The notes under the pieces were generated by a model, which saw nothing but the letters and a program-made list of their open reading frames with translations, ran no database searches and was not told the origin of the DNA. From Eledone cirrhosa (Eukaryota), in assembly GCA_964016885.1 (NCBI GenBank), contig OZ024762.1, forward strand, positions 13,764,001-13,828,000: 64,000 bases of DNA. Direction: 5' to 3'. The translations under genes were made by a program, and so were the position numbers. Below are positions 18,504 through 58,126 of this stretch, piece after piece (position 1 is the first letter of the stretch; each line of letters opens with the position of its first letter).

Positions 18504-19025
18504 TGTGACCCGTCTGTTTCTTTCTTACTGCTTCCCCTTTTCTCTGTATCTCTCACTTACTTTTACCCCCTCTACCAGTCACTCTCTCTGTTAGACTCTT
18601 CCTCACAATTTCACTGACTCACTCTCTGATACTCCATCTCCCACTTCCTCCCGTTTGACCTGTGCGAGATTCTTTCCTCACTCACATTTCGTCCAAGTCG
18701 GATGGTCTTTCTTCTCTCTCGTCTACGATTTCACAGAACTTATGTTCATCGATTGCAGAAGCCCACTGTAGTATTTTAGTCACCAATGCTAGCATTCTAT
18801 ATGTAGGTGGGCCACCTTCATCTCCTGGCAACCAATATGTTTAGACCCAATCCACCACTGTGTGTGTGTGTGTGTGTGTTTATATATATATATATTTAAA
18901 TGTTAAACAAGGTTCAAAGAATAAAGTTTTACAATAGATTAGAAGCACTCCACAAGAATGGTTTTCTGGAGTTATTAATATTAATTCAAAATATTAACAA
19001 AAATAGACATTCGTTTGATCTAGTA

Positions 19026-19092
19026 TATTTTATTATACATATTTCAGAGGTACTGACTTATATTCAACAGTACGTCCTCATCAGATAAAATA
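19026..19092 (-). ncRNA. Type I hammerhead ribozyme, intact core
   Basis: TATTTTAT-CTGATGA-GGACGTACTG(loop)CAGTACCTCT-GAAA-T-ATGT-A-TA-ATAAAATA: 8-bp helix I, helix II, minimal helix III, AUA site. Confidence 0.85.
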
Positions 19093-19186
19093 AGATCATG
19101 CATGACATACTCTGATTAAGCAGATGGTTAAAATCCATGACTGAATTTTAACCATCTACTTAGTCAGGGTATGTCATGCATCATGT

Positions 19187-19253
19187 TATTTTATTTGATG
19201 AGGACGTACTGTTGAAGATAACTCAGTACCTCTGAAATATGTATAATAAAATA
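19187..19253 (+). ncRNA. Hammerhead copy in inverted arm, core mutated (TTGATGA)
   Basis: Mirror of 19026-19092 with C3->U. Confidence 0.75.
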
Positions 19254-19330
19254 TACTTGATCACACGAATGTCTATTTTTGTTAATATTTTGAATTAATA
19301 TATATACATATATATATACACACACACACA

Positions 19331-27211: not shown

Positions 27212-27902
27212 TACTCTCAAATAATCTCTCTCTCTCTCTCTCAAATAATCTCTCACAGCAGGTCTCTAAAAAAGATCAACAAGCTGTGACGTATTTAAGT
27301 ATTTCACCAACCACACATCCCTCCCTTCACACCCTGTCTGCCTGCCTGTCTGTCTGCCTGTCTGTCTGCCTGTTTGTCTGTCTGCCTGTCTGCCTGTCTG
27401 TATGTCTGTCTGTCCCCCTCTCCCTTTCCTCTCTCCACCCTACATACAGACATATATGTTTATATACATATGTGTCTAATCATTTACATACCTATATACA
27501 TACAAATACGAACGTGGGCCTGTCTCATTACATACATCTCCCTCACTCTCCCTCCCTCACTCTCCCTCCCTCACTCTCCCTCCCTCACTCTCCCTCCCTC
27601 ACTCTCCCTCCCTCCCTCTCCCTCACTCTATATCACTCACTATCTCCCCCACTCTCTCTCACTCTATCTCCCTCCCTCTCTCTCCCTCTCTCGCTCTCCC
27701 TCCCTCTCTCTCCCTCTCTCGCTCTCCCTCTCTCTCTCCCTCTCTCTCTCCCCCTCCCTCTCACACACTCTCTCTCCCACACACTCTCTCTCCCACTCTC
27801 TTACTCTCTCAAATAATCTCTCTCTCTCTCTCTCTCTCAGCAGGTCACTTAACTGTCAAAACGACCGGAGTTCAGCCGTCGGGGTCCTGAATCTTTTCAA
27901 CC

Positions 27903-30002: not shown

Positions 30003-30187
30003 CCCCGACAATTGAGCTCCGGCCGTTTCGACAACCAGATCCGAACTTTCGGATCTAGCTGTCGAAACGGCTGGAGCTCAGCTGTCGGAGTCCTGACTCT
30101 TTTCCTCTTACCCACTCTACTACCCTAAGTATCGAGTACTCTGGTGCGTTATGGTCCACCTCGTTTCTTACCACATTTTCTCTGTTA
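30003..30187 (+). mobile_element. Fold-back half-hammerhead element, family E
   Basis: Palindrome centred at ~30043 with GTCGAAACGGCTGGAGCTCAGCTGTC, then tail TTACCCACTCTACTACCCTAAGTAT... Confidence 0.8.
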
Positions 30188-30997: not shown

Positions 30998-31254
30998 CCG
31001 GGAGCTTCCATCAGTAATGGTTGAATTCTTTAAGGGTATGTCAATATTTATTTATAAAACTGCTCTATATTATATTTTATCTGATGAAAGCACACCATAG
31101 TTTAACTTGGTGTCCTTGAAATATGTATAATAAAATAAATATGGTTTTATAGTTTCCACTTGTTAATATCGTATTTTTACTCCAATTATTTGTTGAGTGC
31201 TTTATATCAGTTATAAAAATATTTGCTTGTTGTATCCCGCCAATTTAAATAGAA

Positions 31255-39218: not shown

Positions 39219-39409
39219 ATAGAAAAAGTATGACCCCGACGGCAGAGCTCAAGCCGTTTCGGCGGCTATTTCAGTCCAGAAATAACCGTCGAAACGGCTT
39301 AAGCTCTGCCGTCAGGGTCATACTTTTTCCTATTTCCCACTTTACTACCCTAAGTATTGAGTACTCTGGTGCGTTATGGTCCATTTGGTTCCTTACCACA
39401 ACTTCTTTG

Positions 39410-39412
<3 letters not shown>
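39219..39412 (+). mobile_element. Fold-back half-hammerhead element, family E
   Basis: Palindrome 39219-39333 plus tail; (TA)n on both sides. Confidence 0.85.
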
Positions 39413-43820: not shown

Positions 43821-44224
43821 ACGTATGTGTCTGAGTGTATGTTATTATCTGTGTGTGTGTGATTATGCATGTATGTGTTTTTGTGCCTATGTATGTGTGT
43901 ATCACGCTTTTCTTTCTTTCCTTTTTCTCTCGCTCTCTCGCTCTCTCTCTCTATCTATGTAATCTGTGTATGTGTGTGTATGAAATCTGTGTATATGTAA
44001 TGTGTTTCTTTGAGTGTGTGTGTGTGAATGTAATGTTTGTGTGTGTATGTATATATTTATATATATATATATATATATAACCAAATGTTAAACAAGGTTC
44101 ATTTATTATTCAATGAATATAGTTTTACAATAGATTAAAAGCACTCAACAATGAAGTTTTCTGGAGTTATTAATATTATTCAGAATATTAATAAATGAAG
44201 ACGTTCACATAATCAAAGTATATG

Positions 44225-44286
44225 TTTTATTATATATATTTCGGAGGTACTATGCTGTTTTTTCAGTACGTCCTCATCAGATAACA
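44225..44286 (-). ncRNA. Type I hammerhead ribozyme, intact core
   Basis: TTAT-CTGATGA-GGACGTACTG(loop)TAGTACCTCC-GAAA-TATATA-TA-ATAA. Confidence 0.82.
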
Positions 44287-44401
44287 TATATGAATTGATG
44301 TATGACATACCTCAACTGTGCTGATGGTTCAATTCCAGTATTGCCAAGACTGAAATTGAACCATCTGCACAGTTGAGGTATGTCATACATCAATTTATGT
44401 A

Positions 44402-44463
44402 TTTTATCTGATGGGGACGTACTGAAAAAACAGCACAGTACCTCCGAAATATATATAATAAAA
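44402..44463 (+). ncRNA. Hammerhead copy in inverted arm, core mutated (CTGATGG)
   Basis: Mirror of 44225-44286 with A9->G. Confidence 0.75.
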
Positions 44464-44504
44464 CATATATTTTGATTATGTGAACGTCTTCATTTATTAA
44501 TATT

Positions 44505-44541
<37 letters not shown>

Positions 44542-44579
44542 ATATTAACAAATGGAAACTATATTTATAAAACCATATT

Positions 44580-44644
44580 TATTTCATTATACATATTTCA
44601 AGGATACCAAGTTAAATTATGGTGTGCTTTCATCAGATAAAATA
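44580..44644 (-). ncRNA. Type I hammerhead ribozyme, intact core
   Basis: Reverse complement of 44794-44858. Confidence 0.85.
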
Positions 44645-44793
44645 TAATATATACCAGTTTTATAAATAAACATTGACGTACCCTTTCAAAATGCGACCGT
44701 TACTTTTAGAAGACATCAGGATAGTCTTTCAAAAGTAACGGTCGCATTTTGAAAGGGTACGTCAATGTTTATTTATAAAACTGGTATATATTA

Positions 44794-44858
44794 TATTTTA
44801 TCTGATGAAAGCACACCATAATTTAACTTGGTATCCTTGAAATATGTATAATGAAATA
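44794..44858 (+). ncRNA. Type I hammerhead ribozyme, intact core
   Basis: TATTTTAT-CTGATGA-AAGCACACCA(loop)TGGTATCCTT-GAAA-TATGTA-TA-ATGAAATA; G.U wobble in helix I. Confidence 0.85.
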
Positions 44859-44985
44859 AATATGGTTTTATAAATATAGTTTCCATTTGTTAATATCGTA
44901 TATCTACTCCAAATACTTGTCGAGTACTTTATATCAGTTATAAAAATATTTGCTTGTTGTATCCCAACAATTTAAATAGAACTTT

Positions 44986-45020
<35 letters not shown>

Positions 45021-45024
<4 letters not shown>

Positions 45025-45098
45025 CCCACTCTACTACCCCAAGTATTGAGTACTTTGGTGCGTTATTTTCCACCTGGTTCCTTACCACATTTTCTTCG

Positions 45099-45100
<2 letters not shown>
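45021..45100 (+). mobile_element. Family E tail only, in (TA)n
   Basis: ATTACCCACTCTACTACCCCAAGTATTGAGTACTTTGGTGCG...TTACCACATTTTCTTCGT matches 57982-58061. Confidence 0.85.
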
Positions 45101-57660: not shown

Positions 57661-57871
57661 TTGTCACTCTATCGAAACATGTGTAAGGAATAGAAATATC
57701 TGCTGGTGTGATAAAGTAAAAGAGTGCTCAATGAAGGAATAGAGCTGGTTTGTATTTACATTGATACATGTATGAACATAAATAGATAATACATACATGT
57801 GTATATATATATATATATATATATATCAGAGAGACAGAGAATGGGGAACAAGTATATATATATATATATAT

Positions 57872-58059
57872 ATAGGAACAAGTAAGACCCCGACGGCTGA
57901 GCTCAAGCCGTTTCGACGGCTAATTCTGGAATTAGCCGTCGAAACGGCTTGAGCTCAGCCGTCGGGGTCTTACTTGTTCCTATTACCCACTCTACTACCC
58001 TAAGTATTGAGTACTTTGGTGCGTTATGGTCCACCTGGTTCCTTACCACATTTCCTTCG

Positions 58060-58061
<2 letters not shown>
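57872..58061 (+). mobile_element. Fold-back half-hammerhead element, family E (perfect palindrome 57872-57983 plus tail)
   Basis: 55-bp perfect arms around TG (57927-57928); (TA)n on both sides. Confidence 0.9.

Positions 58062-58126
<65 letters not shown>

Follow-up and report, generated by a model that had tools for sequence, protein, structure and literature searches.

Palindromic half-hammerhead insertions in Eledone cirrhosa and the leader of a Penelope-like retroelement

Results

Family E copies in the window

The window, a 64,000-nucleotide stretch of the Eledone cirrhosa genome, carries several insertions of a short palindromic family, here called family E. An earlier note made from the letters of the window had read these insertions as palindromes that retain only the 3' half of a hammerhead, and its description of the copy at 57872 is borne out. 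Positions 57872-57983 form a palindrome with the centre AATTC-TG-GAATT, in which 55 bp are an exact mirror and 110 of 112 positions are complementary, and the right arm reads GTC-GAAA-CGGCT-TGAGCTC-AGCC-GTC-GGGGTC. Further copies lie at 30003 and 39222, each with the self-complementary centre that the note had given for it, and a remnant (27849-27898) and a tail-only piece (45020-45100) are both present. The strand CUGANGA is absent from the window copies of family E, again as described, and an Rfam search of the window returned nothing at the gathering score. The features are listed below, with element positions counted from the A of a YAGT motif in loop II as +1.

57856..57871, no strand: (TA)n target, left side
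57872..57930, minus strand: tail-less arm, antisense of element +61 to +3
57929..58060, plus strand: tailed arm, element +7 to +138
57929..57940, plus strand: hammerhead helix II, 3' strand
57941..57944, plus strand: hammerhead core GAAA
57944..57962, plus strand: helix III of 6 bp and its loop with the palindrome GAGCTC, kept in both subfamilies
57961..57963, plus strand: GUC triplet, with a predicted cut after 57963 (+41)
57964..57968, plus strand: helix I 3' strand GGGGT, which pairs with ACCCC at -50 in long copies
57984..58060, plus strand: one-sided 77-nt tail, the leader between the fixed 3' end points +58/61 and +138
58061..58123, no strand: (TA)n target, right side
39222..39410, plus strand: copy of a sister subfamily, with the tailed arm from +1 (A39273) and the tail-less arm ending at +7
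30003..30185, plus strand: copy of subfamily 2, with the tail-less arm to +1 (30047) and the tailed arm from +3 (30048)
27849..27898, plus strand: decayed remnant of a tail-less arm
45020..45100, plus strand: tail only, flanked by TA tracts

The tailed arm of the 57872 copy (57929..58060) is identical at 125 of 132 bases to the leader of a full-length copy, L187, and overlaps the tail-less arm by a 2-base microhomology (57929-57930). The partner of its helix II strand is absent from this copy and is found at -38 to -27 in long copies. We infer that the tail-less arm (57872..57930) is cDNA begun at the first of two internal start points. The left end of the 30003 copy is eroded. The tail-only piece at 45020-45100 may be either a cDNA terminated at the other start point or what was left when a palindrome was deleted later.

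Bulged hairpins were noticed a few bases behind each 3' end point (window 57989-58012; L187:481-502). Their folding is weak in the window copy and beyond the tail end, and they do not fold in the first copy of L187.

Abundance and common structure

The exact palindromic core occurs at no fewer than 10,139 loci (at least) in the 3.0-Gb genome, and a 24-base arm pattern matches 26,964 arms genome-wide. The reversed control pattern gave 0 matches in each case, so family E is present far beyond chance. Wherever checked, the insertions lie in a (TA)n site and carry one tail; in the first palindrome sample, the tail was single at 41 of 41 loci, one of them read by eye and the other 40 by script. Each of the two arms has its own fixed 3' end point, +58/61 for one and +138 for the other.

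The parent element and its protein

An upstream extension of the arm, derived from one long centre, has 404 exact matches genome-wide. Among 30 of these loci, many share from hundreds of bases to more than 1.5 kb of upstream sequence, which reaches into a GIY-YIG-type reading frame. The full-length copy L187 (G000:C1:127849000-127854500) has the order pLTR-ORF-pLTR, with a unit of about 3.5 kb and an open 723-aa ORF. A partial tandem and an inverted piece (L070) lie ahead of it. The leader is laid out as follows.

-50: helix I, 5' strand
-45: hammerhead core
-38: G10.1
+7: helix II, 3' strand
+19: GAAA
after +41: predicted cut
+58: short end
+138: tail end
+232: ATG

The 723-aa ORF contains the motifs RWR, DKT, YRDD, CxCx5C (CNCPDGSIC), YIG, CxxC (CNLC) and CxH (CKH), which were found in 101-120 of 120 homologs, and 1,974 homologs at about 40% identity were identified among 7,998 candidates scored. 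Pfam and PDB sequence searches with the ORF gave no match. A structure predicted from 74 homologs (pLDDT 90.7) has telomerase (TERT 3du5, E 6e-8) as its best fold match, and it is this predicted fold that points to a reverse transcriptase (RT). At the C-terminus, a GIY-YIG domain was recognized by eye from a VIY...YIG motif; the 723-aa protein itself has no direct profile match to it, and PF01541 is carried by the best homolog and by several look-alike clusters.

The telomerase-like RT, the GIY-YIG domain, the pLTR repeats, the inverted truncated copy and the one-sided tail place the element among the EN+ Penelope-like retroelements (PLEs), and family E is almost certainly the leader of such an element. 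Judged by its sequence motifs and its (TA)n insertion, the element is of the Hydra type, following the clade's motif definitions in the accessible part of PMC8557442. A non-LTR retrozyme was also considered. Such elements are described in the accessible part of bioRxiv 10.64898/2026.07.22.740005 as tandem repeats with a whole hammerhead in each, and the candidate was rejected because the family E stubs are single palindromes with half a ribozyme, not tandem whole hammerheads.

A hammerhead split between stubs and long copies

The family E piece is the 3' half of a hammerhead, as the earlier note had proposed, and the 5' half is present in long copies. The upstream strand ACCCC-YUGANAA-G was found in 1,314 long arms of subfamily 1 and in 181 of subfamily 2, the type of the 30003 copy. 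Together the two halves would make up a type I hammerhead, in which the helix II domain measures 56 nt and the core is mostly U3-A8 or C3·A8. The parent had been predicted to carry an ACCCC strand for helix I followed by CUGANGA; the helix I strand is there, and the core reads mostly UUGANAA or CUGAGAA instead. Inspection by eye of the first 100 long arms of subfamily 1 gave C3 in 68, U3 in 30 and A in 2, all with A8 and none with a canonical core; in the 68 arms with C3·A8, positions 3 and 8 are mismatched. The first 100 long arms of subfamily 2 are mostly UUGAUAA and include one canonical core, CUGAGGA (G000:C4:213654054-213654123), to which rows with UUGAGGA or UUGAUGA are related. Positions 3-8 in the core thus range over C-G, U-G, U-A and C·A. 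A canonical test pattern with a gap of up to 34, put forward previously, matched 17 times, always at palindrome centres or chance junctions and never at a parent; its gap was too short because the real domain measures 56 nt.

Across 23 hand-picked long copies, pairing in the three helices reaches 93%. Only one compensatory change was found, in helix II (G-C in 12, A-U in 11), and it is a single event between the subfamilies. YAGT keeps a constant distance from GAAA, and the rest of loop II, which is about 30-32 nt long, differs between subfamilies. In five units the hammerhead fold lies 0.8-5.3 kcal/mol above the predicted minimum, and neither the whole ribozyme region nor the leader, when folded freely, proved more stable than its shuffles (z -0.77 and 0.44). 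For the 5' half of a long copy together with the right arm from the window, the three-helix junction is the predicted co-fold minimum, at -26.1 kcal/mol. By their helices, GAAA and NUH site, the long copies are classed from their sequence as carrying a type I hammerhead, and the lack of a canonical core is a variant within the Hydra clade, not an exclusion from it. The hammerhead reading of the stubs is upheld, with the qualification that the core is a variant and the helix II domain is much longer.

Loop III contains the self-complementary GAGCTC in both subfamilies (window 57950-57957), and the arm is predicted to dimerise strongly, the right arm alone giving a predicted homodimer of -41.9 kcal/mol. 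Such dimerisation through loop III would resemble that of dimer-type PLE hammerheads.

Arm ends and a putative start site in loop II

The first 100 of the 26,964 arms, all of which were fetched, were used to locate the 5' edge of the stubs. Between -6 and +28 lie 84 of these ends, and the other 16 arms run on; eight of the 16 scored -12 solely through a 2-base indel, and six of those eight are whole units. No end among the 100 sampled arms falls between -13 and -43, an interval that includes the 5' strand of helix II (-38 to -27). In subfamily 2, 26 of 30 arms end at about +1 and four extend some 10-18 bases into the loop; the 5' half was found in 0 of 30 subfamily-2 arms reaching +1. The window copies end at +3/+7, +1/+7 and +1/+3. 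The edge is a short interval, not a point.

Both arms reach +1 at 2,714 loci. Of 100 arm ends of this class read by eye, 61 continue beyond +1 with A as the next cDNA base, 22 with C, 13 with G and 4 with T. Since A accounts for 61 of the 100, most ends enter the T-run at -1 to -4 or add an A, and an RT stop at an AU tract would match this as well. YAGT itself matches the pyrimidine-A initiator pattern. Among the long arms of subfamily 1, 404 have a pyrimidine at -1 and none has a purine. On the cDNA side, 216 loci have a non-parental pyrimidine at the end of each arm; in the 100 rows from the first 50 of these loci, it is C in 98 and T in 2. Among these 50 loci, only 11 have C...G ends that are not readable as a short templated insertion of the neighbouring CAGAATT, and 20 are CAG/CTG. 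This added-G sign was tested in subfamily 1 only, and it is not evident in 30 subfamily-2 arms. An untemplated G is a known trace of a copied cap, according to the accessible parts of PMC9341517 and PMC6280765, and PLE start sites lie in the pLTR according to those of PMC2377424 and PMC8557442. We consider it likely that an RNA start site lies inside loop II, at or just before the A of YAGT (about -4 and +1). The RNA would probably be capped, the cap being deduced from DNA ends. Start site, cap and cleavage are all read from such ends.

The main rival keeps the insertion two-ended and replaces the start site by a halt: a long read-through RNA would be copied until the RT stops at the AU-rich loop II or at a bound protein. 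The spread of ends from -6 to +28, the 61 of 100 that continue with A and the four subfamily-2 arms that go some 10-18 bases into the loop would all suit such a halt. However, the loop of subfamily 2 is richer in GC and its arms still end at the same YAGT, a non-parental G occurs at -1, and long arms pass many other AU-rich tracts, with not one of the 100 sampled arms ending between -13 and -43. We regard this explanation as unlikely and favour a start site in loop II.

A splice acceptor at the AG of YAGT was rejected, as many arms keep +1 and -1 to -4 and share no upstream exon. At four loci (L131, L161, L173 and L112), the centres hold long A/T runs joined at -1 to -3, a sign that a telomerase-like RT may have slipped or added bases repeatedly at the end of the template. 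In contigs from three runs of one sample, depth changes stepwise near +1 and again beyond the tail, and loose TA ends occur at both 3' points; contig depth is no measure of copy number, the contigs are possibly not independent of the assembly, and they are not counted as support. In a second recurrent junction of these contigs, L187 position 337/338 is joined to 432, that is, a +1/+2 end to a fixed point within the tail on the opposite strand.

Palindromes that turn at the predicted cut site

A second end class was collected with a pattern in which both arms end within 14 bases of the GUC, and it comprises 334 loci genome-wide, the pattern being blind to ends downstream of the site. Among the first 50 of these loci, read by eye, both arms end exactly at the scissile bond in 37 (12 blunt, 25 with added bases), one arm does so in eight, and five are longer. 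Every fetched locus of the class has one tail (20/20), and nearly all lie in TA repeats. In a control set of 26 incidental tailed arms, none ends at +43 to +58, and one, from a diverged subfamily, ends at +42. The bases added at the cut site are C and T in a ratio of 7:19, compared with 22:4 at +1, and are mostly A/T, as an uncapped end should give. The lineage that is mostly U3-A8 is overrepresented in the class (28:8 vs 46:54 in the general sample, p 0.0016), a comparison confounded by age and shared descent. Long copies of the enriched lineage have U3-A8 in 8 of 10, and those of the poor lineage have C3·A8 in 28 of 39. A ribozyme origin of the cut class appears quite likely from these ends, and the class hints at cleavage in vivo, whether in cis, in a dimer or in trans.

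Arm lengths and the probable joining of two cDNAs

The relative lengths of the two arms bear on how the palindromes arise. At 49 short loci, the tail-less arm is longer in 17 and the tailed arm in 22; nine are equal or undecided, and one has no assignable tail. The 57872 copy is an 18th case of a longer tail-less arm, and the 30003 copy likewise has the shorter tailed arm. Of 24 long two-armed insertions judged by eye, 14 have the tail on the shorter arm; four of 28 loci had been dropped as unpaired, complex or duplicate, and second copies per locus were left uncounted. In these 14, the tail-less arm holds hundreds to thousands of bases that are missing from the tailed arm. Since the tail-less arm is so often the longer one (17 vs 22 among short loci, 14 of 24 among long insertions), neither arm was copied from the other. 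Later deletions at the centres could blur the ends and create asymmetry in short copies. The centres are diverse, with 35 distinct ones among 50 loci, and the junctions vary and contain microhomology or added bases. Insertions such as CAGAATT indicate a local snap-back of a few bases at cDNA ends before joining, a small-scale version of the fold-back that the earlier note had in mind. Taken together, priming at two ends is very probable. At one locus (L164:349-1704), the tailed arm ends at -4 and the tail-less arm extends about 1 kb, which would mean two RNA templates per insertion.

Alternatively, a single cDNA started at the tail could run to the RNA 5' end, fold on itself and be extended as a hairpin, with deletions at the centre afterwards; self-priming close to this is proposed in the accessible part of PMC3846280. 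Perfect or near-perfect centres do occur (the nine of 49 that are equal or undecided), the CAGAATT-type snap-back is of this kind, and snap-back after full-length cDNA is known for R2, according to the accessible part of PMC11371274. Nevertheless, single-strand self-priming misfits the arm lengths unless large later deletions are invoked, above all at the 14 of 24 long insertions with a far longer tail-less arm. Both arms can carry their own added C, and the mirror arm ends at one fixed point, which matches a second RT start such as that in the accessible part of PMC11167929. Hairpin extension is accordingly improbable beside two-ended priming.

The earlier note had proposed more specifically that the cDNA folds back on the helix II hairpin. 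The junction does adjoin the helix II 3' strand, and 5 of 50 loci have the centre AATTC-AGTCCA-GAATT, which a 4-base ATTC/GAAT match produces. This fold-back predicts arms that reach -38 to -27 and a 32-nt loop kept in the centre, yet 0 of 100 sampled arms end at the true 5' strand and the 50 loci have 35 centres. It also needs a tailed arm that is never the shorter, but 17 of the 39 decided short loci, 14 of the 24 long insertions and the copies at 57872 and 30003 break this rule; even with the 4-base junction, either arm can be longer (3 and 2). Folding on helix II is thus very improbable, and two-ended priming is retained below.

Proposed mechanism

We propose that the element's enzyme would cut the TA repeat and that the RNA leader would be copied from two fixed internal points onto both DNA ends. 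[quoted passage not shown] Pol II would begin at the A of YAGT or just ahead of it, leaving the half equivalent to CUGANGA outside the RNA. Read-through RNA containing the whole ribozyme would give the long copies, and a minority of RNAs first cut at the GUC would give the 334-locus class that turns at the scissile bond. As a whole, this model of two-ended priming, run-off at a loop II start and a GUC-cut minority has a reasonable, though by no means overwhelming, probability. We advance a joint reading more tentatively, at slightly less than an even chance: the element would start transcription inside its own hammerhead, promoter RNA would yield run-off stubs and only read-through RNA long copies, and the insertions would form a fossil map of 5' ends with two peaks, one capped with an added G and one uncapped at the scissile bond and enriched in the lineage with a paired U3-A8 core. 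In addition, the half in the 3' pLTR could pair with the leader half of the same RNA and bring about release at unit length.

The stubs might instead be selected as functional substrates, half-ribozymes cut in trans by transcripts of the 5' half; the earlier note had also considered cleavage in trans. The predicted co-fold with the window arm at -26.1 kcal/mol and the template RNAs ending at the GUC in the cut class are compatible with this. The copying process already explains the ends, however, and cis cleavage of read-through RNA may give the cut class. Moreover, the arm is predicted to homodimerise at -41.9 kcal/mol, and a read-through palindrome would form a long hairpin that hides the site, so that selection as trans substrates has very little probability. 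Finally, an ordinary palindromic MITE of a DNA transposon would also be short, palindromic, abundant and at a TA target, but the existence of a parent with ACCCC (helix I) and the core upstream, the continuity with the RT/GIY-YIG ORF in long copies, the one-sided tail and a centre that differs in most copies leave it a negligible probability.

Discussion

The comparisons in this section refer to the accessible parts of the cited sources. Family E resembles the Hydra clade, a C-terminal EN+ group, in its single ORF of less than 3 kb, its RWK-like, DKT, CxCx5C, CxxC and CxH motifs, its (TA)n target, its inverted 5'-truncated copy, its one-sided tail and its pLTR hammerhead (PMC8557442). It differs from that clade in a tail of 77-80 nt instead of 30-40, in a non-canonical core that is mostly U3-A8 or C3·A8, in its unit, which measures about 3.5 kb and includes a long 3' UTR, and in that most insertions are half-ribozyme stubs (PMC8557442). 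The type I hammerheads in PLE pLTRs described in PMC4209133 share the covariant U3-A8, the long helix II, the palindromic loop III and the G10.1-C11.1 pair, and motif pairs on opposite strands are described there too. In contrast to them, family E has a full 6-bp helix III, an abundant C3·A8 lineage and a loop II of about 30 nt with a pile-up of 5' ends.

The closest parallels for the ends concern priming and promoters. In the Anolis Poseidon element PAc, two internal RT starts bound the tail, the hammerhead lies just upstream, and both target strands are cut and extended in vitro, as proposed for family E (PMC11167929). For PAc, no RNA reads ending at the ribozyme cut were found in vivo, and run-off stubs are not discussed in the accessible text, whereas DNA ends of family E mark a putative start site as well as the cut site (PMC11167929). 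Penelope of Drosophila virilis likewise has its start site and an initiator-like motif inside the pLTR (PMC2377424). The rotifer pLTR palindromes have similar head-to-head inverted junctions, which were explained by self-priming on an antisense template (PMC3846280), while the arm lengths of family E favour two primed ends. In the trypanosome L1Tc Pr77/HDV-like ribozyme, promoter and ribozyme also share one short stretch at the 5' end, but there the ribozyme lies wholly downstream of +1 (PMC3383444). The putative start of family E would split the ribozyme, so that both halves would be together only in read-through RNA.

Taken singly, the family, the inverted arm, the tail, two RT starts, an internal promoter and the U3-A8 core are already published. 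A partial literature search found no report of a PLE start site inside the hammerhead or of insertions turning at the cut, nor of such a start as the source of half-ribozyme stubs whose two end classes differ, one showing a cap sign and the other a non-cap sign. The family may be listed in the supplements of PMC8557442 and PMC4209133. The role of the hammerhead in endonuclease-bearing PLEs is called unclear in the accessible part of PMC8557442. The joint reading, if true, would amount to evidence from living cells for cleavage by a PLE hammerhead and for use of the cleaved RNA as a template. It would also explain how PLE stubs can fill a genome when full copies need tandem read-through. Between self-priming and two-ended priming as the origin of head-to-head inversion, family E favours the latter. 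The family further gives predictions that can be tested at the nucleotide level: transcription should begin at -4/+1 in loop II, the ribozyme should cut after +41, the RT should start at +58/61 and at +138, and U3-A8 should cleave better than C3·A8.

Other hammerhead families are also present in the window. Long palindromes at 44535-44903, 44177-44511 and 18978-19301 have arms that hold a whole core of the CTGATGA type, and solo arms with such a core lie at 31081 and 58271. These palindromes probably derive from other PLE families, as stubs of an RNA whose start lies upstream of the ribozyme.
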